Of a DNA stretch of 64,000 nt, positions 17,999 to 52,966 are shown piece after piece. Location: assembly GCA_000004695.1 (NCBI GenBank), contig CM000154.2, forward strand, positions 3,552,001 through 3,616,000. The letters are read 5' to 3'. Below the pieces are notes generated by a model. That model ran no database searches and was not told where the DNA came from. It saw only the letters and a list, made by a program, of their open reading frames with translations. A program made the translations under genes and the position numbers. Every line of letters begins with the position of its first letter. The stretch's first letter is position 1. Origin of the DNA: Dictyostelium discoideum. Lineage: Eukaryota.

Positions 17999-18062
<64 letters not shown>

Positions 18063-20150: not shown

Positions 20151-20185
<35 letters not shown>

Positions 20186-22814: not shown

Positions 22815-26312
<3,498 letters not shown>

Positions 26313-26348: not shown

Positions 26349-29300
26349 TTATTTATTTAAACTATTCATTTTATTATTTATTTGTTGCAACAAACGCTTA
26401 TCTTTTTTATTTTTAACAATAAAATAAGTGGTGGCAATAACTATTACAGCAGCGAAAGCGATTGAACCAACAATTATACCAGCTAATTGAGCAGTTGTTA
26501 AACCAGAATTATTTTTTGTACAAACTGAATCATCTTCATCAGAGGCTGATTTACTATCAACAAGCACTGAGAAATCTGGATCAACAACTATTGAGTTTTT
26601 ATAATTTGGAATTGTAATACCAATAAATGATTGTAATGATGATGATGAACTATCAATTACATTCAATGATGAATCTAATAAAACATTACTTATACTTTTA
26701 ACAGTATTATCAATAATAGCACGTTTAATGAATCTACCATAAAGTGAATGGTTTTCAATTTGAATCTTTAAATAATTTGAATTATCACCTGTTGATGTAT
26801 TACCAAATTGATTTGATGTGCAAATATCATTTGAGTTTGTTGTTAATGATGCTTCCATTACTAATTGAAGTTGATTTAATGAACTTTTAAATTGATATTC
26901 TGTAATTTCAATTGTATATTTAATACTAGATGGATTCATTGTTAAATTTTGATTTGCGAATTGAATTGGTGTACTTTGATTAAACCATTCTAAAGTTGCT
27001 GTTATATTTGTATTTGATACTGTTGTAAAGTATTGATTTTTAAATTCGTTAATTGGTGTAAATATCCATTGATCGAATTTATAATTATTTACTTCTTTAT
27101 TATTAAAATCTAATTCTCTTAATGATACTAATGATATTAATGATTTAAATATCATTTTTTGAGATTCTTCACTATTTGTTTCTGATGATTGACCATTATT
27201 ATCTGTTGGTATTTCAACATCTGGTTTTGTTGTATTAATTGATGGTTGTGGTACAATAATAATTTGAGAAGTACAAGTTACTCCAATCCATGGTGAATAA
27301 CAAATACAACCTGTAGATGAACAATAACCTTGATTTTTACCACCACATTGTGGATTACCAAGACATTTTTGTGGTGGATTGGTTGGAATTGGTGTTACAG
27401 TTGGTATTGGTGTTTCAGTTGGAGTAGTTGTAGGTGATTCAGTAGGTATTGGTTTTAATGAACGATCGAAATAGATTGGTTGTATTGGGAATTCATTTGA
27501 TGTGAATCCACCAGCTGTTGAAACTTTAATTTTGAATAATTTATTTGTTTTTTTAATACCTGAAAATTTAATTGCTGATGATCCATAAAATAATGCTGTG
27601 GTTGCTGAATTTGGTGACAATCCACTATCACTATAAGTAATTGTTACTAAATTAACATTTATAAAACCTCTACCATATATAATTATTTCACCATTATCAT
27701 CTGAATAATATTTATCACTTGATGTGATTACTGGTAAATTACTTGAATATGTTGTATCTAAATAATAGTTTGAATTTAAAACCATTTGAATATCTGATGT
27801 AGAATAACCGTAATAATAACCACCATTATTTACAATACCATACATTGATAATGCTATAATACCTGGATAACCAAATTCTAATGGTAATTCTGTTGAGCAA
27901 TTATAAACTGCATTATTTGCGCTATAGAATATTAATTTAGAATTACATTTTGAAATTTCTGTGTGAACTGTTGTTAAGTAAATAATTGGTAATTGATCTT
28001 GTTTTATTCCATTTGTACCTGGATCGATTGAAAAATCAAATGAAATTATTCTATTTGGTGAGCCTACATCAATTGTGGCTGCTGATGTTTTAAATGATAA
28101 TAATGTTGGTTTTGAATCAAGCATTGTTGAACCTGAACATGTAAATGGTAAAATTGTATTATCTATACCTTTATCTAATAAATTAATAAATGGATTAAGT
28201 ATTGAATATGGACCACCATTTAAAATAAACTTTGAAGCTATTTTATTTGTATCATATAATAAAACTTTAACTATTCTATATTCTTGTGATATACATGGTT
28301 GAGTAATATTAATTAAAATTTGATATTGGCAATTGAATTTATCACCAATTACATCATCGATATTAAAATTGAAATGATAAGTTGAACTATCAATTGAACC
28401 CATTACTTTAATATAACCACTTTCAAACCCATTTAAATCATCTGTAATATTAAATTTCCAACCAATTGTACCTGTTGTTGAAACTACTAAACCATTTCCA
28501 ATTTTTTCAAATGAATTAAAAATTGGGCCTTGATAGTCAAGAACTATAATTTTAAATAAAATCAAAAATTAATAAGAGTTTATTCTTTAGTGAATTGAAA
28601 ATTTTTTAATTATTTAAATATATATATTACCTGTTTTATTAACTACTAGTAATTCTTTCATTATACTATTGCTATAAATTGATAATTGTCCAACGAAAAT
28701 TGAAAATGGAATCATTCCAAACATATTATTCTTTTGTAAAATGAATTTACATTCAAATAATCCTGATGTTGTATTATAAATAAATGGGATTTTCTGAAAA
28801 GAAACCGATTCAATGTCTCTTTCTATTGGATGTGAGACAAGATCTAGTAAATTGAATAATATCGGAGCATCTTTAGGTATTTCTGTAGAATTTAAATATG
28901 CAATATTATATTGTTCACTTTCATAACTTAAATCTAAATTATTTTTTAAAAATGATAAATCTATAAAGTCTTTAAAGTTATAATCTATATTAAAAAAAAA
29001 AAAAGAATAATTTGTTAATAAAACAAAAATTTAAATTAAATCAATTTAAATTATATATAGATATATTTATATAATACAAACTATAATTCAATGGTTGAGG
29101 AATTTCAAAAACTATTAATGGATTTAATGATATTGGTGAACCATTTTCATAAGAAACCACATTCCAAATTAAATCAAAAAGATTTATTATTTTAATATCA
29201 CCTAAACCAACAACATATTCGAATGTTCCATTATAAATTGTACCAGAAACCAATATGTATTTTAAAAAATCATTTGAATCCGAAAATTTTGCACCTTTAA

Positions 29301-29706
29301 AACCATTAACAGATTCAACATTGATTGATAATAAATAGTTCATGCTTGTAATTTTAGTGAAACTATATGATTTTAAAATTGGTGGTATCCCATTTGATAT
29401 TTCAAAAGGGTCTATATCAGTATGTAGTACTTTTGACAATGTAAAACAATCATATGAAAGTTGAGTAACTGGAGATTTTTTCAATAATCTTGGGAAATTA
29501 ACTCTATGTGTGAATTTTGAATTGGTACCATAATAAAATCCAAATGGCCACTCTTGAACAGAAGAAGTTACATATTGATATTCAAAGGGTGAAAACTGAT
29601 AATCAAATGAATTATTAAATGATACTTGGAAAAAATTTTTAACTATATCAATATAATCAATTGAGGGGGATAGAAAAATAAAATTTGGCATTGGTGTAAC
29701 TATTAA

Positions 29707-29749
<43 letters not shown>

Positions 29750-29773
29750 TCTCTTTTGAATACCAACAACAAC

Positions 29774-29828
<55 letters not shown>

Positions 29829-30203
29829 TAATACAAACTATTCATTTTTGTTGTAAATGTTTTTAAATCTACTGTTGATCCATTTCCAGTGGTTAAAGTA
29901 CTATTGATTAATACACCAGAATTGATTGGATCTTTAGTTGTATCAATTGCACCTATAAATGTCATATTTCCTTTATAACCTTTAAGTGGAATTGTAGGTA
30001 CATAACTATTAAATACTTGATAAGGTTTCATAATATTTGTATTAAGAGTTGATGTAAATAATGGTTGATAACCATAACTCATTTGAGTATAATTTGAATT
30101 AATTGATAAAATATTTGATGGGAAAAATGTTTCAAAATGAGTTGTTGGTAAATCATTCTCAACTAAAAAAAAAAAATAAATAAAATAAAATAAAATTGAT
30201 ATT

Positions 30204-30298
<95 letters not shown>

Positions 30299-31122
30299 AC
30301 ACTATGACATATATAATTAAAAAAAAAGAAGGGGACCTACAAAAAGAATAATATGAATTGAGTTTGAAAGAAAATGATTTTCCTCCTACAAAATTCATTG
30401 TAATTTCATTTTCTTGAGTTAGATTTTGATTAATCTGATTCATATAAACTATATAATTATATGTATCTAAAAAGTTACTACTATCAATAGCACCAACATT
30501 AATTGAAATTGAATCATAACCTTTAACAAAAAGTTCCAATCCTCCTAAATAAATGTAGTAAATAAAATAATTTGAATAACTAATTGGTTTTGTTGATCTT
30601 TCAATTTTTAGTTTACTAATATCAATATCTATTATCAAATAAATAAAGCACAAATCAATTAATAATTTATTTTTATATTTAAATAATTATTTATAAAAAA
30701 AAAAAAATAAAAAAAAAATAAAAAAAAAACTTACCTAAACATGTTGTGTTTAGTTGATAGGTTTGTTGAAAATTATCACTAGTTGTAAATGTTAATGTTT
30801 GGGATACTAATCCTAATTGAGGGCTATTTTGTATATTGGAAAACATATAATAATTATCTTTATTGAATATTATATTAAAAGGAACACCACCTATGTCAGA
30901 CTGAAAATTTGAAACAGTTATTCCAACTGGTACCTCAACTAAAATTTTATTATTAAAATTGCAATAATTATTAAAAGAATAGGATGGGTACATTGAAAAA
31001 ATTGGTTCAATAATAGTTGCTTTAATAGATGTTTCATCTGTTAATGCTTTAAATTGTCCATTATTAATTTTTATTATTGATAAATTAATTATAATAAATA
31101 AAAAAATTGAAAACCTATTCAT
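26349..31122 (-). CDS. Paralog 1 of a tandem family of about 1390-aa type-I membrane glycoproteins (IPT/TIG-like + EGF-like Cys module + Pro/Thr stalk + TM); 6 exons: 31122..30735, 30628..30341, 30162..29839, 29699..29082, 28984..28631, 28543..26349
   Basis: Signal peptide MNRFSIFLFIIINLSII. All five introns are phase 1, and the exon lengths sum to 4167 nt, a multiple of 3. Exon 5 (28984..28631, ...FECKFILQKNNMFG...) has no Met and is absent from the ORF track but has no stops. The last exon has a TIG-like PVITSSDKYYSDDNGEIIIYGRGF segment, an EGF-like CLGNPQCGGKNQGYCSSTGCICYSPWIGVTC, a TM helix AGIIVGSIAFAAVIVIATTYFIV and a short basic tail. Confidence 0.7.
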
Positions 31123-31639
31123 TTAAATTTATTTTTTATTTTAAAATAAAATAAAATAAAATAGAATAAAAATGAATTAAAATAAAATAAAAATAAAATA
31201 AAATCCAACAAAAAAAAAAAAAAAAAATATCATAAAAGTAAAAAAAAAAAATAATAAAAAAAAATTAAAAAAAAAATTAAAGAAAACTGAATGTATTTTT
31301 ATCAAAAACCAGTTCATGTAATCAATAATATCTTTTCAGAAACCAAAAAACGCCTCGTAAAAATTAAAAACCATGCATTTTTTTTTTCCCAGAAAAAATA
31401 TCTATCAATTCGTTTTTTTGATATTTTTTTGATATTTTTTTTTATTTTTTTTTATTTTTTTTTATTTTTTTTTTTTTTGGGCGAATAAAGTAAAGTGATT
31501 GGGCGAAAAAAAAAGTTAAGCGATTGCCGAGTCAATCTTGATCAAAAAAATTCCAAAATTCCAAACAAAAAAAAAAAAAAAGTTAAAGATAATTTCCAAC
31601 ACTTTTTTTTTGTTAACCAAGCAAAAATTCTTTTTTTAT

Positions 31640-34600
31640 TTATTTATTATTATTCATTTCAGTAATTTTTTTATTTACAGCCACAATGAATTTCTTTTGT
31701 TTATTTCTTTTAATGATAAAATAGACAATAGTGATAACTATTACAGCAGCGAAAGCGATTGAACCAACAATAATACCAGCTAATTGAGCAGTTGTTAAAC
31801 CAGAATTATTTTTTGTACAAACTGAATCATCTTCATCAGAGGCTGATTTACTATCAACAAGCACTGAGAAATCCGGATCAACTATTATTGAGTTTCTATA
31901 ATTTGGAATTGTAATACCAATAAATGATTGTAATGATGATGATGAACTATCAATTACATTTAATGATGAATCTAATAAAACATTACTTATACTTTTAACG
32001 TTATTATCAATAATAGCACGTTTAATGAATCTACCATAAAGTGAATGATTTTCAATTTGAATCTTTAAATAATTTGAATCATCACCTGTTGATGTATTAC
32101 CAAATTGGTTTAATGTGCAAATATCATTTGAATTTGTTGTTAATGATGCTGCCATTACTAATTGAAGTTGATTTAATGAACTTTTAAATTGATATTCTGT
32201 AATTTCAATTGTATATTTAATACTAGATGGATTCATTGTTAAATTTTGATTTGCAAATTGAATTGGTGTACTTTGATTAAACCATTCTAAAGCTGCTGTT
32301 ATATTTGTATTTGATACTGTTGTAAAGTACTGATTTTTAAATTCGTTAATTGGTGTATATATCCATTGATCGAATTTATAATTATTTACTTCTTTATTAT
32401 TAAAATCTAATTCTCTTAATGATACTAATGATATTAATGATTTAAATATCATTTTTTGAGATTCTTCACTATTTGTTTCTGATGATTGACCATTATTATC
32501 TGTTGGTATTTCAACATCTGGTTTTGTTGTATTAATTGATGGTTGTGGTACAATAATAATTTGAGAAGTACAAGTTACTCCAATCCATGGTGAATAACAA
32601 ATACAACCTGTAGATGAAAAATAACCTTGATTTTTACCACCACATTGTGGATTACCAAGACATTTTTGTGGTGGATTGGTTGGAATTGGTGTTGTGGTTG
32701 GTATTGCTGTTGTGGTTGGTATTGGAGTTGTAGTTGGTGTTTCAGTTGGAGTAGTTGTAGGTGTTGGTGTTTCAGTTGGTATTGGTTTTAATGAACTATC
32801 AAAATAGATTGGTTGTATTGAGAATTCATTTGATGTGAATCCACCAGCTGTTGAAACTTTAATTTTGAATAATTTATTTGTTTTTTTAATACCTGAAAAT
32901 TTAATTGCTGATGATCCATAAAATAATGCTGTGGTTGCTGAATTTGGTGACAATCCACTATCACTATAAGTAATTGTTACTAAATTAACATTTATAAAAC
33001 CTCTACCATATATAATTATTTCACCATTATCATCTGAATAATATTTATCACTTGATGTGATTACTGGTAAATTACTTGAATATGTTGTATCTAAATAATA
33101 GTTTGAATTTAAAACCATTTGAATATCTGATGTAGAATAACCATAATAATAACCACCATTATTTACAATACCATACATTGATATTGTTATAATGCCTGGA
33201 TAACCAAAACCCAATGGTAATTCTGTTGAGCAATTATAAACTGCATTATTTGCGCTGTAAGATATTAATTTAGAATTACATTTTGAAATTTCTGTGTAAA
33301 CTGTTGTCAAATAAATAATTGGTAATTGGTCTTGTTTTATTCCATTTGCACCAGGATTGATTGAAAAATCAAATGAAATTATTCTATCAGGTGAACCTAC
33401 ATCAATTGTGGTTGTTGGTGTTGTAAATGATAATAATATTGGTTTTGAATCAAACATTGTTGAACCTGAACATGTAAATGGTAAAATTGTATTATCTATA
33501 CCTTTATCTAATAAATTAATAAATGGATTAATTATTGAATATGGATCGCCATTTAAAATAAATTTTGAAGATATTTTATTTGTATCAAATAATAAAACTT
33601 TAACGATTCTATATTCTTGTGATATACATGGTTGAGTAATATTAATTAAAATTTGATATTGGCAATTGAATTTATCACCAATTACATCATCGATTGTAAA
33701 ATTGAAATGATAAGTTGAACTATCAATTGAACCCATTACTTTAATATAACCACTTTCAAACCCATTTAAATCATCTGTAATATTAAATTTCCAACCAATT
33801 GTACCTGTTGTTGAAATTACTAAACCATTTCCAATTTTTTCAAGATAACTAAAAATTGGACCTTGATAGTCAAGAACTTTAAAAATAAAAATAAAAATAA
33901 AAATGTTAATTATTAATAATGACAATTAATTAAATTTTCAAACTTACCAGTATTATTTACTATTAATCTTTCATTCATTAAACTATTATCGAATAAATTA
34001 ACATTACCAACATGAATTTGAAATGGAATCATTCCAAACATATTATTCTTTGGTAATATGAATTTACATTCAAATAATCCAGATGTTGAATTAAAAATGA
34101 ACTGATTGTTGGTTAAAGAAAAGTCTTCAGGATTTCTCTCGAATGGAGATGATACAATATCTAGTAAACTAAAATATAACGGAATATCTTGAGGGATATT
34201 TGGTGAATTTAAATAAATGATATTGTAAGATTCACTTTCAATATTTAAATCTAAATTATTTTTTAAAAATGAGATACTAGTAAAATCATTAAAGTTAAAT
34301 TCTATTAAAATTATAAAAAAAAAAAAAAAATTATTAATATTAGAATTGAAAAAAAAATTAATTATTAATTAAAATAAAATTTAATAATTACCATAATCAT
34401 ATGACTGAGGATAATTAAAAACATTTAAAGGATTAGCAGAAAATGGTGTGCCAACATTAAAAACTAAAGAATTTAAAAGGGTATCTTTGATTTCAAATTT
34501 ATCAATACCAACAAATGAAATAATTAATTCAAATGAACCATTATAAATTGTACCACTAATCACTGAAAATTGAATTGGTTGCCCTCCAGAATAGACTGAA

Positions 34601-35891
34601 ATACTTTTTACACCATTAACAGATTCAATATCCAATGAAAATAAATAATTGAAATTTGTTATTCTAGTGAAATTATATGATTTAAGAATTGGTGGAATTG
34701 AATCTGAACCTGAACTTGATTCAGGAATTATATATTCATCAAATCTTTCTTGATTTTTTATAAAATAATATTTTAAATAAATTACTGGAGAAAGAAATTG
34801 GGGTCTTGGGAAAGAAACTTGATGTGAAAAATTGGAATTGGTGCCAGAAATAAATCCATACGGCCAATCTTCATTAAAATTAGATATAAAAAAATATTGG
34901 AATTGGGAAAACTGGTAATCATATGAATTTCTAAATGATGCATAGAATAAAGAAACTGTACCAACTGTGGTATAACCAATGAATGGAGATTCAATTCCTA
35001 GTATTGGGATTGGTGTGACTATTTTTGATATTGAAAAGTTTGAAAAAAAAAAATTAGTAAAAAAAATAATAATATAAAAAAAAAACAATAATACCATACC
35101 ATTAATTTTTGTTGTAAATGTTATTAAATCTACTGATACTCCAATTTCACTCATTAAAGTACTATTGATTAATACACCAGAATTGATTGGATCTTTAGTT
35201 GTATCAATTGCACCTATAAATGTCATATTTCCTTTATAACCTTTAAGTGGAATTGTAGGTACATAACTATTAAATACTTGATAAGGTTTCATAATATTTG
35301 TATTAAGAGTTGATGTAAATAATGGTTGATAACCATAACTCATTTGAGTATAATTTGAATTAATTGATAATATATTTGATGGGAAAAATGTTTCAAAATG
35401 AGTTGTTGGTAAATCTTTCTCTTTAACTAAAAAAAAAAATATTAAAAAAAAAATAATAATAATATATTATTAATAAAATTTATAAAAATCCAATATTATT
35501 TTATTAAAAAAAAAAAAAAAGGTAATAAAAACTTACATAAAGAATAATAAGTATCGAGCTTGAAAGAAAATGATTTACCATCATTAAAATTCATTGTAAT
35601 TTCATATTCTTTAGTTAAATTTAAACCATAAGAAATTTGATTTATCAATATACAATAGTTGAATGAATTTGAAAAGTAAGTATATTGAATGATAGCAGTA
35701 GTGCTTGGAATTGTTTCATAATAATAACCAGGTTCTAAACCTTCTAAAATAATATAGTACAAAAAATAATTTGAAAAACTAATTGGTTTTGTTGAATTTA
35801 CAACTTTTACTTTATCAATATCAATATCTAAAAAGTAATAAATAAACCACAAAAAAATTTAATATATTAATAAATTATATTTTCCATATTC

Positions 35892-35941
<50 letters not shown>

Positions 35942-36326
35942 TACCTAAACAATTTGTATTAAGTTGATATGTTTGTTGAAAATTATCACTAGTTGTAAAT
36001 GTTAATACTTGAGAATTTGTTCCAATTTTTTGATTACCTTGAATATTTGTAAATATATAATAATTATTATTGTTTAATATTTGATAGAATGAAACATCGT
36101 TATTTAAATCGCTTGAAAAACTTGTGATAGTTTTACCAACTGGAATTTCAATTAAAATTTTAATTTCAAAGCTACACTCATAATTATTTTTTGGATATTT
36201 TGAGAATGTTGAGTTTATTGATTGGGCTAAAATAGATTGTTGTGGAGTTAAAGGTGTTAATTGCGATTCATTTAATTTTATGAAAAAAAAAATTATAAAT
36301 ATCGATAAAACATAAAATTTATTCAT
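31640..36326 (-). CDS. Paralog 2 of the same family; 6 exons: 36326..35945, 35827..35537, 35426..35100, 35018..34392, 34301..33948, 33876..31640
   Basis: Same phase-1 architecture; lengths sum to 4218 nt. Exon 3 and most of the last exon are 97 to 100% identical to paralog 1, while exons 1, 2 and 4 are strongly diverged. Exon 5 (34301..33948) is hidden from the ORF track. Confidence 0.7.
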
Positions 36327-36987
36327 ATTTTTTTTAATTCTTAAAAAAAAAAAAAAAAATAAAAATAAAAGAATATGTGGATAAAAAAAAAAAAAAAAAA
36401 AACTAAAAAAAAAAAACCACGTACTTTTGTGAGGATATGAATTGATTTATTCGATTAATTGAAAACAAATTATGAAACTCGAAAAAAATTGATTAAATAA
36501 CCAAGAGTTTAAAAATTTTTACGTGCTTTAACTTGTTCCCATTTCTATTTTTTTTTTTTCGTGCATTTTATAAAATTTATTTTTACCCAGGTAAAAAAAA
36601 AATAAAATAAAAAAAAAATAAAATAAAAACAAATATCTAAAACAAAAAAAAAAAATAAAATAAAAAAAATAAAAAAAAGATATTTTTTTTTTTGGGTAAC
36701 AATAAATGTAAAAATAAATTTGCATTTAAAAAAAAATAAAAAAAAATAAAAAAAAATTAAATAGATAATTAATAAGTTTTTTGTAAGGGTGGTTGGATGT
36801 AAAAATTTAAGCGTTAAAGTGGTGAAAAGTAATTTTTCGGGCTGTGGGTCTTTTTTTTTTTTTTTTTTTTTTTTATTTTTTTATTTTCTATGCGACCCCC
36901 CTTAATAATTAATGCTCAAAAAAAAAAGTTAGATTGTGCAGATAATTTCCAACACTACTTTTTCATAAAGTAAAAAAAGATAGATTT

Positions 36988-39900
36988 TTAATTTTTATTC
37001 ATTTCAGCCATTTTTCTATTCACAGAATCTACGAATTTCTTTTGTTTGTTCTTTTTAATGATTATATAAATAACACCAATAATTATTACAGCAGCGAAAG
37101 CGATTGAACCAACAATAATACCAGCTAATTGAGCAGTTGTTAAACCAGAATTACTTTTTGTACAAACTGAGTTATCTTCATCAGAGGCTGATTTGCTATC
37201 GATAAGCACTGAGAAATCTGGATCAACTATTATTGAGTTTCTATAATTTGGAATTGTAATACCAATAAATGATTGTAATGATGATGATGAACTATCAATT
37301 ACATTTAATGATGAATCTAATAAAACATTACTTATACTTTTAACAGTATTATCAATAATAGCACGTTTAATGAATCTACCATAAAGTGAATGATTTTCAA
37401 TTTGAATCTTTAAATAATTTGAATCATCACCTGTTGATGTATTACCAAATTGATTTGATGTGCAAATATCATTTGAGTTTGTTGTTAATGATGCTTCCAT
37501 TACTAATTGAAGTTGATTTAATGAACTTTTAAATTGATATTCTGTAATTTCAATTGTATATTTAATACTAGATGGATTCATTGTTAAATTTTGATTTGCG
37601 AATTGAATTGGTGTACTTTGATTAAACCATTCTAAAGTTGCTGTTATATTTGTATTTGATACTGTTGTAAAGTACTGATTTTTAAATTCGTTAATTGGTG
37701 TATATATCCATTGATCGAATTTATAATTATTTACTTCTTTATTATTAAAATCTAATTCTCTTAATGATACTAATGATATTAATGATTTAAATATCATTTT
37801 TTGAGATTCTTCACTATTTGTTTCTGATGATTGACCATTATTATCTGTTGGTATTTCAACATCTGGTTTTGTTGTATTAATTGATGGTTGTGGTACAATA
37901 ATAATTTGAGAAGTACAAGTTACTCCAATCCATGGTGAATAACAAATACAACCTGTTGATGAACAATAACCTTGATTTTTACCACCACATTCTGGATTAC
38001 CTAGACATTTTTGTGGTGGATTGGTTGGAATTGGTGTTATTGTTGGTATTGGTGTTGTGGTTGGTATTGGTGTTGGAGTTGGTATTATAGTAGAATTAAA
38101 ATAAACTGGATTAACAATAAATTCATTTGATATGAAACCATCAATTGTTAAAGCTTTAATATAGAATGGGCTCTTAGTATTTTTAATTCTTCCCACTCTA
38201 ATTGCTGATGATCCATGAATTAACATTAAACTTGCTGAATTTGGCGTCAAACTACTATCGCTGTAAACAAAATCAATTCTGGAAACTTTTGAAAAACCTC
38301 TACCATATATAACCAATTCACCATTATCATCTGAATAATATCGATCTGTTGATTTGATTACTGGTTGGTTAATTGTAAATGTTGTATTAATATAATAGTT
38401 TGAGAGTGGTACTCTTTGAATATCATCACTTGAATAACCATAATAATAACCACCATTATTTACAATACCATATACTGAAAATATTAAAGCATTTGGGAAA
38501 CCAAAACCCAATGGTAATTCAGTTGCACAGGAATAAGAAACATTTGTTATATTATACGATACTAATTTTGATTTACATTCTACCAATCCATTAAATAATG
38601 AAGTTATATAAATTATTGGTAATTGATCGATTTTAATAATCGGTACACCACTATCAATTGAAAAATCAAATGAAATGGTTCTATTGGTCGCACCTACATC
38701 AATGGTTGTTGCTGATGTTGTAAATGATAATAATGTTGGTTTTATATTTTCTATTACTTGTAATATTGAACATGTAAATGGTAAAACTGTAATACCAATA
38801 CCTCTTTCTAAGAAATTAATAAATGGATTAATTATTGAAGCAGTAAGTAATGAAGGTGTATATAAATTAAATCTTGAAGCTATTTTATTTGTATCAAACA
38901 ATATAACTCTAACGATTCTATATTCTTGTGATATACATGGTTGAGTAATATTAATTAAAATTTGATATTGGCAATTGAATTTATCACCAATTACATCATC
39001 GATTGTAAAATTGAAATGATAAGTTGAACTATCAATTGAACCCATTACTTTAATATAACCACTTTCAAACCCATTTAAATCATCTGTAATATTAAATTTC
39101 CAACCAATTGTACCTGTTGTTGAAATTACTAAACCATTTCCAATTTTTTCAAAAGAACTAAAAATTGGACCTTGATTGTCAAGTTCTATAATTTATAAAA
39201 AAAGAAATTAGTTTTTTTTTTTTTATGATTATTTAATTTTTTCATTCAAATAAATAATTACCAGTCTTATCTACAAAGAGTTCATTAACTATATCAGTAC
39301 TATAAAATCCTGATTCTGGTGAATGTTCAATCATATATTGAATATTTCCAAACATATTATTCTTTGGTAATATGAATTTACATTCAAATATTCCTGTGCT
39401 GGCATTGTAAATGAATGGATTTCTATATAACATATTGGCAACATCAGTCATATCTCTTTCTATTGGAAATGATATTATATCCAATAAAACAAGTGCCATT
39501 GTTTTATATGGTGGAATATCGCTTGAATTTACATACAAAATATTATAAGAATCTTCCTCTAAGCTTAAATTATTCTTTAAAAATCTAATATTATTGTTTT
39601 GAAAATTTGAAATATTTAATTCTAAATTATTATTTTAAAATAAAGGAAAGTATTCATTAGTTAAAGTAAAATTATTTTATTTAATAAAAAAAAAAAATCA
39701 AAAAATCAATATTTAATATAATACATACTATAACTTATTTCTTGTGGTAATTGGAATATAACTAATGGATCTATTGAAACTATATCACCTGGATTATAAA
39801 TAGAACTATAACCATATAAATCAAACATTATAACATATTTTACACCATGAAAACCTGTAATTAATTCAAATGTACCATTGTAAATTGTGCCACTAACTAA

Positions 39901-40750
39901 AGTGTCAATACTGACATATAATTGTTCTGTAGCCATAAAATTTCTAATTCCATTAACACTTTCGATTGTTAACCTTAATATATATTTTTGACTTGAAACT
40001 CTTGTGAATTGATATGATAATAATTTGGGAGGTGAATTAGATTGATCAAGAGTCAATGGCGAAAATTGAACACTAAACTCACCTCCATCAGTGATGCCAA
40101 AACTATAATAATCAGATTTTGAATATTCCAAAAGTTGAACTAATGAAACTTTATGTGTATAATAATTATTATTACCTGAATAAAACCCATATGGCCAACC
40201 TCTAATTTCACTACTAAAATAACCATATGTAAAATCAGTAAACTGGTATGGCTCAGTTACATTGATTGTTACAGAATATACTGGAATTGGATTAATATAT
40301 AAAGTTTCACAACTATTTGTAGTTGAGTAGATTTTTGGTAAAATTATATCTATATATATATATATATTTATTTTAAAAAAATAAAAATTAATATTATTAG
40401 AAATTAGAAAAAAAAAAAAAAAAAAAAGAAAATTAATACAAACCTTGAATATTTACTGATATACTTGAATTATTAATCGAAAATCCATCTTCATTAATAA
40501 AAGTGGAATTTCCATTAACAACAAAACCAATAAATGTCATATTACCCTTTTTTCCTTTTAATGGGAGAGTGTATTTTTCACCAGAATTAGTTCGAATTAA
40601 TTGATATGGTCTCATAATGTTTGTGTTTAATATTGATTGGAATACTGGACCACAAAAATAACTAAATTGTGTGAAATTAAGTCCTGGTGATAATATATTT
40701 GGTGGATAAAATGTATCTATATGACTTGTCGCTAAATCTTGTTCGTCAAC

Positions 40751-40800
<50 letters not shown>

Positions 40801-41673
40801 ATTAATAATTATTATTAAATTTAAATAATATAAATAATGATATTAAAATGATATTGTTACATTGAGAGAAATATGATCCAATACTAATAGGAAATAACCT
40901 ATTGTTACTAAATTTTAAATTAAAGTTTATATCTTGAGATAAATTTTGTAAAGCACCTAAACTCAACTGTATTACATAATTATAAATTGGATCACCTGAA
41001 TGGAGGATGTTGACACCGGAAACATAATCTGTATATATTTCTATAGGAAAATGTGGTTTTATTCCAGATATTTTGAGGTAGTAATAATAAGATGAAGCCA
41101 TATGAAAAGGTTTTGTTTCACTTATTACAAAAAGATCATCAATATTTAAATCTTTAAAAAAATAAAAATAAAAATAAAAAAAAAATTTATTATTAATATG
41201 TATTATTTTATAATTATTATTGTTATTATTATTATTATTATTATTATAAATATATACATATTATTTTAAATAATAAAATAAAATATCTTACCACTACATG
41301 TTGTCATAAATTGATATGTATGATTATTATTATCGTTTGTTGTAAATGTTAATTCTTGATAATAAATTCCATATTCTAAACTTCCATATGAAATAAGATT
41401 ATACAAATATTTATCATTGGTTTGAAATTTTTGATTAAGTTTAAAGTTTGTATTATTAGTTGATGCACTTGTTATGGAAACACCTTTAGCTTCTATTTGA
41501 ATATTATATGAATTTTGGTTGCAATATCTACTATCTGATGAATATGGAGTTCGAGAGAAAATTGGATTTACCACTGATGCTAATAAGGTTGTTTCTGGTG
41601 TTATTGGTGTAAATTGAGAATTATTAACTCTTAAAAAAAAAATTAATAAAAACAAAATTATTAATATTTTCAT
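36988..41673 (-). CDS. Paralog 3 of the same family; 6 exons: 41673..41292, 41151..40861, 40749..40444, 40349..39729, 39621..39262, 39185..36988
   Basis: Signal peptide MKILIILFLLIFFLRVNNSQ. The same six phase-1 exons sum to 4158 nt. The N-terminal exons and the first half of the last exon diverge from paralogs 1 and 2. The last roughly 1 kb, from IPTNPPQKCLGNPECGGK through the TM and tail, is near-identical to them. Confidence 0.65.
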
Positions 41674-41690
41674 CTCCACTTTAAACAATT

Positions 41691-41743
<53 letters not shown>

Positions 41744-41876
41744 CAGAACACAAAAAAAATTTATTCGTTCTTTAGTGGTGATCGAAAATTGATGTTTGCA
41801 TTCTTTTGAAACGCCAAAAAAAAAAATGATTGTTTTTAGTTTTTTTTTTAGATTTTTTAAAATATCTAAAATTTTG

Positions 41877-41910
<34 letters not shown>

Positions 41911-42379
41911 CGGTATTCAAAAAAAAAAAATACTAATACCGTTTTTTAACAAAAAAATTAAAACATTTCACTATTTTATTTTTTTTCAGTAACCAACCAA
42001 TTTCCAAAGGGTGCATAAATAAAATAATAAATAAATAATATTAATATTTTTTTTTTTTTATAATATTTTAATTATTTTCATTTTTTATTTTATTTTTTTT
42101 ACGGGAACTAGGATATTTTATTATTTTTAAGGTGGGAACTAAGATATTTTTTTTTTTGGTTGAAATGAAATACTTATTTTTGTTTTTTATTTTTATTAAA
42201 TGAGTTTAACCTTCAATTTTTTTTCGAGTTTTTTTTTTTTTTGCAACTGACATTTTTTTAATTAAAATTTTATATGAGAAAAAAAATAATTTATTTATTT
42301 ATTATTATTTATTAATATTGGAGATTAATCAATTTCAGAGATTTTGTTTGAATTCTGTTGATTTATTGTACTATCATGA

Positions 42380-43330
42380 ATGGCCTTTAATTTTTTAGTA
42401 TATTTTTTTCTTGGTTGGCCATTTTTGTTAAGTTTTAACACAGGTGATGAAAAGTCGGTAACTGGTATATTAAAATTGTTTTGGATATTGACATTTAAAA
42501 CATTTACAGTTGAATTAATAGTAACCTTTGATGGTCTACCTCTTTTTTTTGGTGCTTCATCTATTTTTATTGTATTTCTGTGATTTTAAAATTAAAAAAT
42601 TAGTATATAATAATAGTAATTTATAGATTTTATTTTTTCTTACCTACCCTACACCCAAACTGTTAATTTGGAACCCAATCTTTCTTGCATCTGCTATTTG
42701 GGTTGAAGAGGGTTTTTCATTTATAACTAAAGTATTGGAAACACATGCCAAAGATTTATCGTCATTATTTTCCAATTCATCCAAATAAGATGCTTTTATC
42801 AATTTCCAATCAATTTCCAATCTATTTTAATCATTTCAAAAGCATTCTTAATAGTAATTGGTGAAGCAGTAGCATCCCATGATGTTTCTATTACGTCCGA
42901 TAATTCCTCAAATGATAATTTGCTTGTTTTGGGTATATCCTTTTTGGATTTAACCCTTTTTAAATTATTAATGGTCTGGTTCAACTTTCTTTTGAAAATA
43001 CCGAAAACCAATAAATCCAATGGTTGCAATAAGTGAGTTGAGTTAGCTGGAAACGTATAACAATGAATATTATATTCATTCAAGGCATCTGCAACTTCGT
43101 ACCTCATGTATCTAAATTACCATTATAATTATATTTTAATTAAAAAAAATTTTATAATACAATATTAAAATTAAAATATTAATCGTACCTCTTTAATATT
43201 TAGATGACTATATTGCGGTGTTTCAATAATATATTTAATAAAGTTTTTCACCATAAAATTTTTATTTTTTTTTTCAGCTTCAAAAAAAATTTGAAGTTTA
43301 TTTATTAACCTTATGTTTGATGGTTTTTTT
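42380..43330 (-). mobile_element. Degenerate pogo/Tigger-like (Tc1/mariner superfamily, DDE_1) transposase remnant inserted between paralogs 3 and 4
   Basis: ORF 42799..43107 reads ...YNIHCYTFPANSTHLLQPLDLLVFGIFKRKL..., the hallmark NIxxxFLPPNTTxxLQPLDxGV block around the third catalytic acidic residue of pogo-type transposases. Flanking frames (KKRGRPSKV...) look coding but are broken by stops and frameshifts. I could not identify clear terminal inverted repeats. Confidence 0.5.
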
Positions 43331-43489
43331 GTCTCCATTTCAAATTGTTTTTATTGTAATCGAACCATAAAGTAAAAAAAAAAATTTTTTTTATTTTTAA
43401 ATTTTTCATATTATTTTTTTAATTTAATTAAAAAAAAAGCGCCAGTTGCGAAAAAAAAAAAAAACCTCAAAAAAAATTGTAGGTAAATA

Positions 43490-43520
<31 letters not shown>

Positions 43521-43528
43521 ACCATTTT

Positions 43529-43569
<41 letters not shown>

Positions 43570-43857
43570 TAGGTTAAAATATTTTTTATTTTTTATTTTT
43601 TTTTTTAAATTAAATTATTTATATTTATTCTTTATTTGTGTTAGGGAATAAAAAAAAATAAAATAGGAAATAGTTGGATATACCAAAGTTTATTAAAAAA
43701 AAATTGAGAAATTGAAAAATTTAAAAGAAATATACAATTTATTCCTTCCCTGCCCCAATTTTTTACTTTACAAATCTATCAAATAATGAACTAATAATAG
43801 AGTATTCAAAGAATATCTTTAAAAAAAAAAACAATAATTCGGATTTATTTTATTTAT

Positions 43858-46560
43858 TTATTTATTATTATTCAATTTATTCAATTTATTATTGATTGAC
43901 ATTTCGAATTTCTTTTGTTTTTTGCTTTTTGTGATAGCATAGACAGTAGCGATAACTATTACAGCAGCGAAAGCGATTGAACCAACAATAATACCAGCTA
44001 ATTGAGCAGTTGTTAAACCAGAATTATTTTTTGTACAAACTGAATCATCTTCATCAGAGGCTGATTTACTATCGATAAGTACTGAGAAATCTGGATCAAC
44101 AACTATTGAGTTTTTATAATTTGGAATTGTAATACCAATAAATGATTGTAATGATGATGATGAACTATCAATTACATTTAATGATGAATCTAATAAAACA
44201 TTGCTTATACTTTTAACAGTATTATCAATAATAGCACGTTTAATGAATCTACCGTAAAGTGAATGATTTTCAATTTGAATCTTTAAATAATTTGAATCAT
44301 CACCTGTTGATGTATTGCCAAATTGGTTTAATGTGCAAATATCATTTGAGTTTGTTGTTAATGATGCTGCCATTACTAATTGAAGTTGATTTAATGAACT
44401 TTTAAATTGATATTCTGTAATTTCAATTGTATATTTAATACTTGACGGATTCATTGTTAAATTTTGATTTGCAAATTGAATTGGAGTACTTTGATTAAAC
44501 CATTCTAAAGTTGCTGTTATATTTGTATTTGATACTGTTGTAAAGTATTGATTTTTAAATTCGTTAATTGGTGTATATATCCATTGATCGAATTTATAAT
44601 TATTTACTTCTTTATTATTAAAATCTAATTCTCTTAATGATACTAATGATATTAATGATTTAAATATCATTTTTTGAGATTCTTCACTATTTGTTTCTGA
44701 TGATTGACCAATATTATCTGTTGGTATTTCAACATTTGGGTTTGTTGTATTAATTGATGGTTGTGGTACAATAATAATTTGAGAAGTACAAGTTGTTCCA
44801 ATCCAAGGTGAATAACAGATACAACCTGTTGGTGAACAAAAACCTTGAGTTTTACCACCACATTCTGGATTACCAAGACATTTTTGTGGTGGGTTGGTTG
44901 GAATTGGTGTTGTTGTAGGTATTGGTGTTGTGGTTGGTGTTGTGGTTGTGGTTGGTGTTGGTGAAGGAGATTCAGTAGGTGTTGGTGGGATAGTTGCATT
45001 AAAATAAATTGGATTAACAGTATATATGTTTGATGTTAATGTATCACTTGTTGAAAATGTAATATCAAAAGGTTTATTAGTTGATTTAATTCCAGATATT
45101 TTAATTGCTGATGATTCATAAACTACTAAAGGTGGGAATGAATGAGGTGCTAATGTACCATCTCTATAAACAATATTAACTTGAATAACATTTGAAAAAC
45201 CTCTACCATATAGAACCAAATCATTATCATCTGAATAAAATCTATCAGTTGATTTAATAGTAGGTTGATTAAATGAGTATGTAGTATTTGCGTAATAACC
45301 AGAAGTAACTGTAGATAAATCCTTTGGAGTATAACCATAAAAGTAACCACCATTATTTACAATACCATATATTGAAAAAATCAATTGATTTGGATAACCA
45401 AAGCCAATTGGTAATTCTGTTGAACATTTATAAACAACCTCAACATTATTATATGATATTAATATTGTATCTCTACATTCAACTAAACCAGAAAATAATG
45501 AATTTATATAAACAATTGGTAATTGATCTTGTTTTATTGTAGATGTACTTGTACCAAATGAAAAATCAAATGAGATTGTTCTATTTGTTGCACCTACGTC
45601 AATGACTGATGTTGATGGTGTAAATGATAATAAGCTTGGTTTTGAATCTACTAATGTTGAATCTGAGCATTCAAATGGTACAATTGTAATATCAATACCT
45701 TTATTTAATAAATTGAGGAATGGATTAAGTATTGCTGCGTTTGCAAGTATAGGTGTATATAAATAAAATCTTGAAGCTATTTTATTTGTATCAAATAATA
45801 TAACCTTAATAATTCTATATTCTTGTGATATACATGGTTGAGTAATATTAATTAAAATTTGATATTGGCAATTGAATTTATCACCAATTACATCATCAAT
45901 TGTAAAATTGAAATGATAAGTTGAACTATCAATCGAACCCATTACTTTAATATAACCACTTTCAAACCCATTTAAATCATCTGTAATATTAAATCTCCAG
46001 CCAATTGTACCTGTTGTTGAAATTATTGAACCATTTCCAATTTTTTCAAATGAACTAAATAATGGACCTTGATTATCAAGTACTATAATTTACAATAACA
46101 AAAAATTAGTTTCTTTTTTTTTTATTATTAGATATATTAAAAAAATTATTATTAAAAAGGTAAAAACTTACTTGTATTATTTGCAATTAAAGGTTCAATT
46201 AATTCATTACTATGTATACCCAATAGATTTCCATAGAATACTGTATATAGAATTTTTCCAAACATATTATTCTTTGGTACAATGAATTTGCATTCATACT
46301 TTTTAGTTTGAGCATTGTATTTAAATGGAAGCTTAACAATCATTCCATCGGAATCACTACTATCTCTTTCAACTGGGAATGAAATAATATCAATTAATAA
46401 TAAAGATAATGATTTTTTAATTGGAACATAATCATTAAAATCAATATACATAATATTATAAGAATTATCTGTCAAATCTAAATTATTCTTTAAAAATGTT
46501 ATGTTAAAGTTTGTAATATTTAATACTAAAATTAAAAAATTAATAATTAATAAATGACAT

Positions 46561-46613
<53 letters not shown>

Positions 46614-47670
46614 TTAAATGATACTTACCAAATTTGATTTCTAGTGGTAAATCGAAAATAACTAAAGGATCTATAGAAATTACATCACCTGGGTTATAAT
46701 CTTTACCATTTCCCAATTGATCATAAATTGAAACATAAAGAAGTTGATCGGGTGTACCAACTATTTCAAAAACACCATCGTAAATTGTACCACTAACTAA
46801 TGTTCCTGAACCAAAAGCATTTAAAGGTGAGTAAGTATTAATGGATCTAACACCAGAAGAACTTTCAATTTTTAAACTTAATATATACATATAATCTGAT
46901 ACCTTGGTATATCTATATGATATTAATTGAGGTGGTGTAGAAACTTTAGTTGGAAATGTTAAACTTTGATAAATTTCAATATTCGATGAGGAAGAGCCTA
47001 TATAAAAATAATTTGAAGCAGTTGGAGAAGTTTCCTTTAATCTATTAAATGAAGTTTTGAATTCATAATTTGCGTTATTACCTGAATAAAAACCATATGG
47101 CCAACTTTGATATACAGTAACCCCATATATATATAAAAATAAATCAGTACCTTGATATTGATATCCATTGTAAAAACTAAGAGAATTTATTAGAGCTTCA
47201 GTATTTTCTTGAGATAAATAAGTTGAAGTTGGTCCCATCATTGGTATATTTAAATCTTTAATTATTATTATTTATTTTTTATTTATTTTAAAATTAATAA
47301 TTAATAATTAATAATTAATAGTTAATAGTTAATAATTAATAATTAATAATAATTTATAATACAAACCTGTGATATTTGGGTTATATACTGTTGAATCAAT
47401 AGAGCTATATCCATTTGCAGTTACAAGTGTACTACCTCCCATAATTGAACCAATATATGTCATATTTCCTTTTGTACCTTTAATTGGAAGACTATATATA
47501 GGAGAATACATAAAGAAATAATATTGATATGGTCTCGCTATATTTGTATTGATTGTTGATTGAACTACTGGATTACAACTAGACCCAAATTGATTAAAAT
47601 TATATTCTGTTGATAATATTTCTGGTGGATAAAATGTTTCTATATGACTTGTTGGTAAATCAACTTGATT

Positions 47671-47716
<46 letters not shown>

Positions 47717-48601
47717 TATATATGGAAATAAATTAATAACTATTAAATTATAATTTTAATTTTAATAATAAACACTTACATTGACTATAATATGATTTTA
47801 ATTTAAAAGAAATATTTCTATCATTACCAAAATCAAATGTTACATCTAAATCATCAGTAATATTTTGTTGATTGAATTGATAAATTTGCAGCAAATAATT
47901 AAAACGCGATTCACCTGTTACTATTACAGAACCATAGGAATTCTTTAATCTTATTCCAACTGCTTGGTCAGATTTTTCAAGTCCAGTAAGTGAAATGTAG
48001 TATAAGAAAGAACTATAAAGGTAAATTGGAGTTAAATATTCACTAATATTTAATTTATCGAATTGGAAATCTTTTTTTTTTTTTAAATAATATTAAAATT
48101 AATATTTGAACTTAATAAATTACACCAAATCAATTTTTTTTTTTTTTTATTTTTTTTTTTTTTTTATTTTTTTTTTTTTTTTATAATAAATTATAATAAC
48201 TTACCATTACAAGTTAATGTTAATTGATATGTGTGGTCAATTGTATCATTTGTTGAAAATGTTATTACTTGATAATTAATTCCAAAGTTTTGATTATATT
48301 GTGTTGCAAGAATAAACATATAGGAATTTTCTTTTTGAAATTCTTTTTCAATAGAAAAATTTGTATTATTAGTGATTGCACCTGTAATTGAAAAACCACT
48401 TTGAGCTGTTATATAAATTTGGTAACTTTTATATTGGCAATAAGAGTGTTCACTCGAAGCTGGAGAATAAACATAAGTTGGGTTAATATTAACTACTGAA
48501 GCTTGTATGGTTGACTCGGGTGATAATGGCGCGAATTGGGAATTACTGAAATTTCCAAAATAAAAAATAAATAAAAATAAAATTGTTGTTAATATTTTCA
48601 T
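43858..48601 (-). CDS. Paralog 4 of the same family; 6 exons: 48601..48205, 48070..47780, 47672..47367, 47255..46629, 46525..46172, 46082..43858
   Basis: Signal peptide MKILTTILFLFIFYFGNFSNSQ. Exon 2 (48070..47780, no Met) is hidden from the ORF track. Phase-1 introns throughout; lengths sum to 4200 nt. The 3'-terminal roughly 1 kb is near-identical to paralogs 1 to 3. Confidence 0.65.
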
Positions 48602-49687: not shown

Positions 49688-49996
49688 TTATTTATTTGTA
49701 TTTATTTTTTTTAAAATTTTTTGAATATATAAAAAAGTAGAATTTTGATATTTTAAATTTTCTTTATCATTGTTTGGGAAAGTGATTGATTTAATTTCCA
49801 TTAATTCAGAAGTTGAAATTGATATTAAATTATTTCTAAAAAAATATTTAATAATCTCTAAATAATTAAATTTTAAACAAACTTTAATTAAACTCCAATC
49901 AACTGATGGGAAATTTTCCTTATAATTATCAAATATGAATTTAATAACTTTTAAATTTCCAAATTGAACAGATTCTTTAATAATTATTTCTAATAA

Positions 49997-50052
<56 letters not shown>

Positions 50053-51884: not shown

Positions 51885-51970
<86 letters not shown>

Positions 51971-52550
51971 TTTTGATTTTATTTTTTTATTTTCAAATTT
52001 ATCAGAATCTATTGGTTTTTGAATGAATTGTGAACAATCTGAAAGTAAGAAATTTATAAAATCTAAATAACCTTCAAACTGATCTCTATTTAATGAACCA
52101 TTGAAACTACTTAATGATTTTAATAAACAATTCCAAATTTTATTTGAAGTGATTGATTTTTGAATTTCTTCATTATCATTATTATTATTACCATCTTTAT
52201 CAATAGTAGTGGTTGTTGTGGTTGTTGTTGTTGTCTTTGTTGAATATAGTTGATTAAAATCATCTTCAAAACCAGTTGTATTATTATGATTTATAATTAT
52301 CCATTTTGAAATATCAAAATTTTCAAAGAAAATAGATTGAAAAAGGTTTGAATAAGTTGGTTGATAATTAAATTTCTTACAAATTGATTTCAATGAATAT
52401 TGATTATTTGATAATATCGATGAATTAACAAGTGTATATCCAATATTCTTTTTTTTAAAATATTTTAATTTTGAATATCGCTTTAATAATGATTTATAAA
52501 ATTCTTGATCTTGTTCGTCTTTAAAATATTTAAATATATTTAAAAATTCA

Positions 52551-52582
<32 letters not shown>

Positions 52583-52966
52583 TATTATATTATTTTTAAA
52601 ATTTGTATAAAATTTAAATAATTTATCATCTAATGATTGATTATTGTTATTATTATCTTGTTCTTCATTTATTAATCTTTTTTGTTCATCTAATTCTATT
52701 AATTTATAAAATTGAATTTGGTTATCACTTTTTTGTAATTCTAATGATGTTGATGGTGTATTACTATCTAAAACTAAATAACAATGACTCTTCATTAATT
52801 TATATTTTAATGTCGCTCTATAATTATTGTTGATTAACCATTTAATTGAATGTTTATTTTCAGTGGGTGATAATATATTATCATCTTGTATTTCGTAGGA
52901 TAAATATTTTATAATCTTTTTAAATATAGTTTTATTATGTATTACTTTATAAAATAATATATCCAT
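49688..52966 (-). CDS. Hypothetical 1092-aa low-complexity protein (poly-Asn, poly-Gln, Thr/Pro repeats); N-terminus related to the 59605..62136 gene
   Basis: Uninterrupted ORF with coding-like composition outside the homopolymer tracts. The N-terminus is MDILFYKVIHNKTIFKKIIKYL... I recognise no domain. Confidence 0.55.

Follow-up and report, generated by a model that had tools for sequence, protein, structure and literature searches.

How can the members of a tandem gene array be nearly identical in some segments, silent sites included, and strongly diverged in the segments between them? This question is raised by four paralogous genes of Dictyostelium discoideum that lie head-to-tail on the minus strand of chromosome 5, at positions 26349-48601 of a 64,000-nucleotide stretch (the window, to which all coordinates refer unless another assembly is named). 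We number them g1 to g4 in order of increasing coordinate. We consider it very likely that they form an ancient array, drawn from an uncharacterised family of dictyostelid surface proteins, in which the membrane-proximal parts are homogenised by recurrent interlocus gene conversion, with a role as receptors or adhesins that we suggest at low confidence.

The array was delimited by a self-BLAST of the 25-50 kb region of the window, which has a G+C content of about 20%. Gene models were built from sequence alone, using open frames joined by GT-AG introns that were picked by frame continuity, donor consensus and AT content. Each gene has six exons spread over 4.69-4.77 kb and a predicted product of 1385-1405 amino acids, and all five introns fall at identical columns of the protein alignment in g1-g4. 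The model of g1 (DDB_G0290059, Q54GN0; 31122-26349, 1388 amino acids), with exons at 31122-30735, 30628-30341, 30162-29839, 29699-29082, 28984-28631 and 28543-26349, is exactly ACTFIT_001333. That of g2 (XP_635933, Q54GM9; 36326-31640, 1405 amino acids; exons 36326-35945, 35827-35537, 35426-35100, 35018-34392, 34301-33948 and 33876-31640) is 100% identical to the database protein over 1405 amino acids, and that of g3 (DDB_G0290061, Q54GM8; 41673-36988, 1385 amino acids; exons 41673-41292, 41151-40861, 40749-40444, 40349-39729, 39621-39262 and 39185-36988) is 100% identical to ACTFIT_001335. The exact product of g4 (48601-43858, 1399 amino acids; exons 48601-48205, 48070-47780, 47672-47367, 47255-46629, 46525-46172 and 46082-43858) was not found in the protein collection searched; its reading frame is intact, its introns are GT-AG and their positions are shared with g1-g3. 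Three of the four models thus equal independently annotated proteins (the ACTFIT locus tags belong to the AX2-214 annotation), and together with the self-BLAST they confirm the original prediction, made from the letters of the window, of four minus-strand genes of about 4.7 kb, head-to-tail and with one six-exon layout. The AX4 RefSeq version of DDB_G0290059 has 1348 amino acids and uses a different acceptor for exon 2 (30341-30628 in our g1 model), and that of DDB_G0290061 has 1469 amino acids and differs from the six-exon g3 model (36988-41673). Both reference models probably need correction, the six-exon versions being backed by paralog conservation and by the AX2-214 annotation.

Each protein has an N-terminal hydrophobic leader, 24-29 N-x-S/T sequons and, near the C-terminus, a single hydrophobic 19-mer with a basic tail of about 25 residues behind it, features that predict type I membrane glycoproteins. 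From the N-terminus the layout consists of a distal ectodomain (exons 1-5), DUF7035, DUF7034, the IPT-like DUF8390, a Pro/Thr stalk, the EGF-like DUF7949, a ComC-type supersandwich, the transmembrane helix and the tail.

To describe how identity is distributed along the genes we compared g1-g4 by identity per exon, by nucleotide identity per tract and by the proportions of synonymous (pS) and nonsynonymous (pN) sites that differ in windows of 50 codons. Divergence is block-wise, with bounded tracts, and not uniform along the genes, and this mosaic is real and far beyond chance. No pair of genes has kept close similarity in exons 1, 2, 4 and 5 (24-62% amino acid identity, pS 0.23-0.80). Two segments, both in exon 6, are homogenised in all four genes. 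The first, tract A, measures 285 nucleotides (g1 28254-28538, g2 33587-33871, g3 38896-39180, g4 45793-46077; minus strand, as for all tracts) and takes in the first 95 codons of the exon, which encode the N-terminal part of DUF7035; pairwise nucleotide identity is 93.0-97.9%, and the adjoining intron 5 is not homogenised. The second, tract C, measures 981 nucleotides (g1 26433-27413, g2 31730-32710, g3 37075-38055, g4 43948-44928). In g1 it encodes residues 1035-1361: it begins at the end of the Pro/Thr stalk, includes the EGF-like module (DUF7949), the ComC-type supersandwich and the juxtamembrane region, and stops after the first half of the transmembrane helix. All six pairs are 96.2-97.7% identical there (23-37 differences in 981 nucleotides), and pS is 0-0.17 per 50-codon window.

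Two further tracts are homogenised between g1 and g2 only. Tract B (g1 27414-28253, g2 32711-33586, g3 38056-38895, g4 44929-45792), of about 280-290 codons, covers the remainder of DUF7035, DUF7034, the IPT-like DUF8390 and the stalk, and shows 94.6% nucleotide identity between g1 and g2 against 71.6-73.8% in all other pairs. The exon-3 tract (g1 29840-30157, g2 35101-35418) lies in an exon with 92% amino acid and 96.2% nucleotide identity between these two genes (12 differences in 318 nucleotides, pS 0.01-0.04), against 62-68% at the nucleotide level in the other pairs. Taken as a whole, exon 6 is 92% identical in amino acids and 95% in nucleotides between g1 and g2, and exons 1, 2 and 4 of the same pair are 55, 56 and 42% identical in amino acids. 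The second half of the transmembrane helix and the cytoplasmic tail (g1 26352-26432, g2 31643-31729, g3 36991-37074, g4 43861-43947) are not homogenised, these last 27-29 codons having 58-79% nucleotide identity between paralogs, and introns, 5' flanks and 3' untranslated regions are at the AT-rich background (46-74% identity against 62 ± 2% for shuffled sequence). At the 5' edge of tract C lies an 18-bp tandem repeat that codes for the Pro/Thr stalk (32677-32738 in g2, 38022-38086 in g3 and 44895-44963 in g4; Tandem Repeats Finder, 3.4-3.8 copies). The length of the stalk varies between paralogs, and this minisatellite may be a point at which recombination initiates or terminates.

Much of this pattern had been anticipated. 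The original prediction placed exon 3 and most of the last exon of g1 and g2 at 97 to 100% identity, which is right as to near-identity and slightly high as a figure, and its value of about 50% for exons 1, 2 and 4 is correct at the protein level. The near-identity of all four genes over the final 1 kb or so holds for the 981 nucleotides up to the middle of the transmembrane helix but not for the tail, and it does reach synonymous sites, as had been claimed (pS 0.05-0.10 in tract C). The statement that g3 and g4 diverge across the whole ectodomain has to be withdrawn, since all four genes agree at 93-98% over the opening 95 codons of exon 6, a shared tract that the prediction had overlooked.

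We compared the array with its counterparts in D. citrinum, in D. firmibasis and in a wild isolate of D. discoideum (assembly GCA_054859355.1), genomes that originate from a 2025 study of tgr evolution (PMC12745789); below, numbered copies are labelled C for D. citrinum, D for the window and F for the wild isolate. In D. citrinum the syntenic array has five genes and adjoins the same convergent gene, an Aminotran_5/PP-loop fusion, with the orthologues in the same order as in the window; D. firmibasis carries a syntenic array of at least three genes with the same flank. Two of the D. citrinum copies have peculiarities of their own: C4 has a frameshift in exon 6 (L001, about 2957-2973), which may mark a pseudogene or an assembly error, and in C2 (L001, about 17954-20809) the intron-5 region is open and in frame with exons 5 and 6.

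The trees of the two kinds of segment conflict. In exons 1, 2, 4 and 5 every orthology group (g1-C1, g2-C2, g3-C3, g4-C4) has a bootstrap of 100%. In tract C the copies of the D. discoideum clade group together (99%), as do those of D. citrinum (100%), and every orthology group has a bootstrap of 0%. The identity matrices agree with the trees, with grouping by species inside tract C and by orthology outside it. At silent sites, copies of tract C within one species are close to each other (pS 0.05-0.10 in D. discoideum, 0.03-0.09 in D. citrinum and 0.04-0.05 in D. firmibasis), whereas every pair between species, orthologous or not, is at 0.19-0.33 (0.19-0.26 for D. discoideum against the other two). 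The silent rate of tract C is not unusually low, because the unconverted orthologues of tract B show a pS of 0.24-0.32 between D. discoideum and D. citrinum. Tract A behaves similarly, with a pS of 0.02-0.14 within D. discoideum and 0.20-0.48 between species.

The segments shared by g1 and g2 follow the same logic on a smaller scale. In tract B, genes 1 and 2 have a pS of 0.09-0.10 both within D. discoideum and within D. citrinum, against 0.24-0.29 between the species, and the g1+g2 clade and, separately, the C1+C2 clade each have a bootstrap of 100%; tract B of genes 1 and 2 was thus homogenised independently in the two species. Exon 3 of g1 is 74% identical to the D. citrinum orthologue of g2 and 63% to its own orthologue, with a bootstrap of 98% for the g1+g2 clade, and the donor of the exon-3 tract is likely to have been the g2 lineage. 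The tails track orthology across species (pN 0.04-0.05 for D4-C4 and 0.09-0.11 for D2-C2; bootstrap 100% for the clade of g4 and Dcit8356), indicating that they are conserved paralog by paralog.

From the orthology groups we conclude that the paralogs are older than the split of D. discoideum and D. citrinum, and probably older than the split from D. firmibasis as well. Sequence has been copied between them, because paralogs that predate the species are closer to each other at silent sites than orthologues are. The comparative evidence of three species thus identifies the mosaic as the product of recurrent interlocus gene conversion. In tract C, F1 and F3 differ at 19 sites and D1 and D3 at 23, and alleles of one gene in the two strains differ at 30 (D1-F1) and 25 (D3-F3); since two paralogs of the same strain are separated by no more sites than the two strains' alleles of a single gene, or by fewer, conversion is still active. 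We also applied a Sawyer-type runs test to the polymorphic sites, in a permutation implementation of our own and not in GENECONV. It found 134 consecutive concordant polymorphic sites for g1-g2 (p = 0.0002), and gave p = 0.009 for g2-g3 and p = 0.016 for g1-g3. The claim of recurrent conversion that fixes the membrane-proximal part while the distal ectodomain diversifies is thus backed by the incongruence between species and orthology trees and by silent sites in three species, and the conversion-tract test proposed along with it is significant for g1-g2 and weaker elsewhere.

Selection was measured between the window (AX4) and the wild isolate. The ratio pN/pS is 0.80 in the distal exons (1, 2, 4 and 5), 0.38 in tract B and 0.19 in tract C, and the distal exons and tract C differ significantly (Fisher's test, p = 1.4e-8). 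In exon 4 of g1, pN (0.096) exceeds pS (0.058); two flanking genes that were measured have a pS of 0.03-0.05. In these proteins, then, constraint acts on the membrane-proximal part, and the outer part is either close to neutrality or subject to diversifying selection.

In this process short internal segments pass repeatedly from one paralog into another by non-reciprocal recombination. Two tracts in this way stay uniform in all copies of a genome, the 285 nucleotides at the start of exon 6 and the 981 nucleotides between the EGF-like module and mid-helix in the transmembrane segment, and exon 3 and the rest of exon 6 are exchanged only between g1 and g2, the adjacent and most similar pair. The tract edges may have two causes: divergence beyond the tracts would stop the extension of heteroduplex, and selection would purge converted distal exons and converted tails; the tails stay specific to the paralog and orthologous across species.

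Several points weigh against this account or narrow it. The runs test is weak for pairs besides g1-g2 (p 0.005-0.3), because polymorphic sites are scarce in the tracts shared by all four genes, for which the argument depends on the comparison between species. We found no sign of GC-biased conversion, the G+C content at third codon positions being 7-9% in the converted tracts against 11-14% elsewhere. The distal pN/pS of 0.80 is not different from 1 (p = 0.13), a value at which relaxed constraint and diversifying selection are not separable. Expression, splicing and glycosylation of the array genes are predictions. Finally, copy number varies, with g2 missing in one isolate and an extra copy in D. 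citrinum, which means that unequal exchange also acts on the array.

Unequal exchange could even be the main process, with repeated crossing-over and birth-and-death turnover homogenising the genes in place of short-tract conversion. In the wild isolate the order is g4, g3, g1, and g2 is absent (L003, 9309-9740); the orthologue of g2 is clear in D. citrinum, and the absence points to a presence/absence polymorphism or an assembly gap. D. citrinum C5 is a near-copy of C3 (pS 0.03 in tract B) and an extra paralog at the position of the spacer between g4 and g3. Unequal exchange or deletion evidently occurs, given the presence or absence of g2 and the additional copy in D. citrinum, and a transposon fragment in one spacer of the window is a sign of structural turnover. 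A single unequal crossover, however, homogenises the whole side of the breakpoint and alters copy number, whereas the tracts seen here are internal, 0.3-1 kb long and flanked on both sides by diverged coding sequence, introns and untranslated regions of the gene in which they lie, and between species the distal exons and tails keep their orthologous order. For these reasons short-tract conversion is preferred to single unequal crossovers, and we judge turnover by crossing-over to be improbable as the main cause.

Could purifying selection alone, acting with extreme strength on the protein and perhaps on the mRNA, keep the membrane-proximal 1 kb alike in all paralogs? The low pN/pS of tract C between strains (0.19) would fit, and the tract spans the recognisable domains DUF7949 and ComC_SSD. 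Protein constraint, however, cannot make paralogs that arose before speciation closer at silent sites than orthologues (pS 0.03-0.10 against 0.19-0.33 in three species), nor does it predict the clustering of tract C by species (bootstrap 99-100%), and 83-101 of its 981 nucleotides (about 9%) differ between D. discoideum and D. citrinum, which means that the sequence is free to change. An origin of the pattern by selection without conversion is therefore very improbable.

An equally poor case can be made for whole genes that duplicated recently within each species and whose distal exons then diverged very fast, the shared tracts being those that have not yet diverged. The labile copy number, with g2 missing in isolate L003 and C5 a near-copy of C3, speaks in its favour, but the distal exons form orthology groups across species (bootstrap 100%) and their silent divergence between paralogs is near saturation (pS 0.3-0.8). 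The window agrees with D. citrinum in array order, D. firmibasis also has the flanking genes, and the tails track orthology as well; we give this history very little credence. Repeat collapse or mis-polishing is scarcely credible, for while cross-mapping of short reads between close paralogs is documented in Dictyostelium gene families (bioRxiv 10.1101/2025.10.22.684067), the tract C copies are not identical (23-37 differences in 981 nucleotides), the AX2-214 proteins equal the translations of g1, g2 and g3, and the assemblies of the wild isolate, D. citrinum and D. firmibasis give the same tract structure, each with its own species-specific sequence.

What kind of protein, then, is subject to gene conversion in this array? 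In all four proteins Pfam finds DUF7035 (122-126 bits), DUF7034 (109-114 bits), DUF7949 (52-58 bits) and ComC_SSD (60-66 bits), in that order; DUF7743 is found in g3 and g4 only, and DUF8390, between DUF7034 and DUF7949, comes from newer Pfam annotation of orthologues. The IPT/TIG and EGF label of the original prediction was reasonable as to the IPT-like fold, but should give way to membership of an uncharacterised dictyostelid family with one IPT-like and one EGF-like module: on the four whole proteins PF01833 (TIG) has no match at E <= 10 and no EGF family is above threshold. The segment that had been called TIG-like is DUF8390, a seven-strand beta-sandwich (minus strand 27453-27767, g1 residues 917-1021, PVITSSDKYYSDDNGEIIIYGRGF...). 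When the segment is isolated, that of g1, near-identical to that of g2, aligns with PF01833 over its full length at 14.1 bits (E 0.048, cut-off 20.9), and those of g3 and g4 have no match; the orthologous segments of D. citrinum and D. firmibasis reach 17.1 and 15.3 bits, and that of a distant paralog, P0015, is above the cut-off with 22.4 bits. An AlphaFold2 model of the segment (pLDDT 79.7, pTM 0.71) folds as a seven-strand sandwich. Its best Foldseek matches in the PDB are the C-terminal domain of the Rel homology region of NFAT1 (E 3.4e-4, template-modelling score 0.59), NFAT/FOXP, NF-kB p65, plexin C1 (0.64) and CGTase; the top matches have E values of 3e-4 to 2e-3 and template-modelling scores of 0.53-0.64, so that their significance is modest. 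From the scores and the model we regard the DUF8390 segment as IPT-like in fold, and would not place it in the Pfam TIG family.

The EGF-like module has 35 residues and the pattern C-x4-C-x8-C-x5-C-x-C-x9-C, with all six cysteines in g1, g3 and g4. In g2 (about window position 32600, residues ~1077-1083, ..NQGYFSSTGCIC..) a phenylalanine takes the place of the third cysteine, which leaves an odd number of cysteines despite the homogenisation of the module by conversion. The EGF_2 profile (PF07974) scores only 7-8 bits, against a cut-off of 22.1, and the UniRef name of the proteins is EGF-like. A model of exon 6 (pLDDT 56.5) is good for residues 1-355 and poor for the EGF and supersandwich part; in it DUF7035 and DUF7034 are also beta-sandwiches, and its Foldseek matches are generic tandem Ig arrays (LILRB, KIR, filamin) that are not diagnostic. 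The family profile has no match at E <= 10 among all PDB sequences.

By domain order the four products belong to a large, uncharacterised, Dictyostelia-wide family with the architecture DUF7035-DUF7034-DUF8390-DUF7949-ComC_SSD. Word-indexed homologue searches returned only 17 and 4 proteins, a strong underestimate of family size; the exhaustive profile search found 1294 representatives (at 50% identity) at E <= 1e-3 and 507 at E <= 1e-30. Most of the top 150 matches have 1200-1450 amino acids and align across most of the profile. Ten representatives that we looked up come from D. discoideum (other chromosomes included), D. cf. discoideum, D. citrinum, D. purpureum, Tieghemostelium lacteum and Heterostelium album, with one JGI/IMG metagenome entry; where UniRef gives a name, it is no more than "EGF-like domain-containing protein". 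Members such as Q55CD8 and DDB_G0288317 of D. discoideum, F0Z8P0 of D. purpureum, DLAC_02370 of T. lacteum and PPL_11382 of H. album resemble the array proteins in domain order, in length (about 1350-1400 amino acids) and in their single C-terminal transmembrane helix, and match the profile end to end. Our literature searches found no described function for any member and no paper on the family. Searches by gene identifier, by family and for gene conversion in Dictyostelium arrays returned tgr work only and nothing on these genes, so that the domain-restricted concerted evolution of this array is, as far as we searched, previously undescribed.

The resemblance to Tgr proteins that had been suggested for the array was not borne out. 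Tgr proteins are defined by several TIG/IPT domains (PMC12745789); the array proteins lack this multi-TIG architecture, have no PF01833 match over their whole length, and bear the source names "hypothetical protein" or "EGF-like domain-containing protein", not tgr. No tgr-named protein was among the homologues recovered, and on these grounds of architecture and naming we reject a Tgr identity for g1-g4. The two systems are alike in several respects. Both consist of type I surface proteins with Ig-like beta-sandwiches, of which the array proteins have one IPT-like fold, and are encoded in clusters with copy-number variation; in both, as in the allorecognition pair TgrB1/TgrC1, ectodomains evolve fast and there are signs of interlocus conversion, which has been suggested for tgrB1/B2 (bioRxiv 10.1101/2025.10.22.684067, PMC12745789). 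They differ in that the array proteins carry DUF7035, DUF7034 and ComC_SSD, which are not listed in the description of Tgr (PMC12745789), and in that conversion in tgr genes is proposed to create diversity (bioRxiv 10.1101/2025.10.22.684067), whereas in the array it keeps a module constant.

ComC (the "communication mutant C" protein), which has been listed as an EGF-domain protein restricted to group 4 (Glöckner et al., PMC4931340), and the ComC-like P0017 share with the array proteins a supersandwich domain (PF22933) beside EGF-like modules and a transmembrane helix. Unlike them, P0017 combines a leucine-rich repeat domain and two supersandwich domains with numerous EGF repeats and true TIG domains, and lacks DUF7035 and DUF7034. 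Its TIG repeats are not detected by a profile built from the IPT-like domain of the array family.

Gene conversion limited to parts of the genes is well known from the variable exons of clustered protocadherins and from KIR/LILR and MHC genes. There, as here, some segments are homogenised within a species while ligand-binding ones stay distinct or diversify, and trees group by species in one part and by orthology elsewhere. The array differs in belonging to an unrelated family and organism, and in homogenising the membrane-proximal ectodomain and half of the transmembrane helix while the short tail escapes. The array is thus a clean new example of a well-known process, domain-restricted concerted evolution in tandem receptor genes, and establishes no new principle. 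What makes it interesting is that the tract edges are sharp and conserved across three species, that the tail escapes, and that it points to a large unstudied family of surface proteins in a model of self-recognition.

As to function, we suggest with low confidence that the array encodes surface receptors or adhesins in which a variable, ligand-binding outer part is mounted on a common membrane-proximal module. That module might have to stay interchangeable, for example to engage one shared partner, and the paralog-specific tails would give different outputs. A bolder and decidedly speculative idea, which we hold to be unlikely, is that the array, perhaps with the whole family of some 1300 clusters, constitutes a second recognition or adhesion system of social amoebae, independent of Tgr, in which conversion keeps the EGF/supersandwich/transmembrane docking module constant. 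The fast-evolving, copy-number-variable outer domains would then read partners, prey or pathogens, and all paralogs would dock on one shared cis-partner or signalling machine; if so, the sharp tract edges of three species would be maintained by selection and would not be a by-product of divergence.

Research on aggregative multicellularity and kin recognition has Dictyostelium as its main model and has focused on the tgr genes. The array now adds another large, unstudied surface family whose evolution resembles that of the tgr genes: its members stand in tandem clusters and vary in presence or absence, their outer domains change near-neutrally or under diversifying selection, and recombination between loci is active. 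The pattern of modules offers a natural map of functional units (a variable outer part, a membrane-proximal part that conversion holds constant in at least three species, and a tail that is paralog-specific and orthologous) that can guide knock-outs and domain swaps. On the practical side, the near-identical 1-kb tracts will cause errors in the mapping of short reads and in expression counts.

The spacer between g4 and g3 (2.1 kb, 41674-43857) holds a degenerate, frameshifted DDE_1 (pogo/Tc1-like) transposase fragment on the minus strand at 42644-43338, which matches only the C-terminal half of the profile (PF03184, 35.9 bits) and is an insertion in the array, not a family member. The same spacer is about 1.4 kb shorter in the wild isolate (L003). 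We searched it for a remnant of a fifth family gene, since D. citrinum has one at this place, and found the DDE_1 fragment only.

Directly upstream of the array is an open reading frame of 1092 amino acids (49688-52966, minus strand) that has no Pfam match at E <= 1. On the other side, the convergent neighbour on the plus strand (22815-26312) is a single open reading frame of 1165 amino acids that fuses a class-V (NifS-like) aminotransferase to a PP-loop ATPase and contains a long poly-Asn tract; it also flanks the array in the wild isolate, and a convergent gene of similar length lies at the same place in D. citrinum and D. firmibasis. Introns 3 (29774-29833) and 2 (30200-30297) of g1 contain long (AAT)n/(TAT)n triplet arrays that are 92-100% identical to the poly-Asn repeat of this neighbour (25013-25313), a likeness that reflects simple-sequence similarity and not homology.

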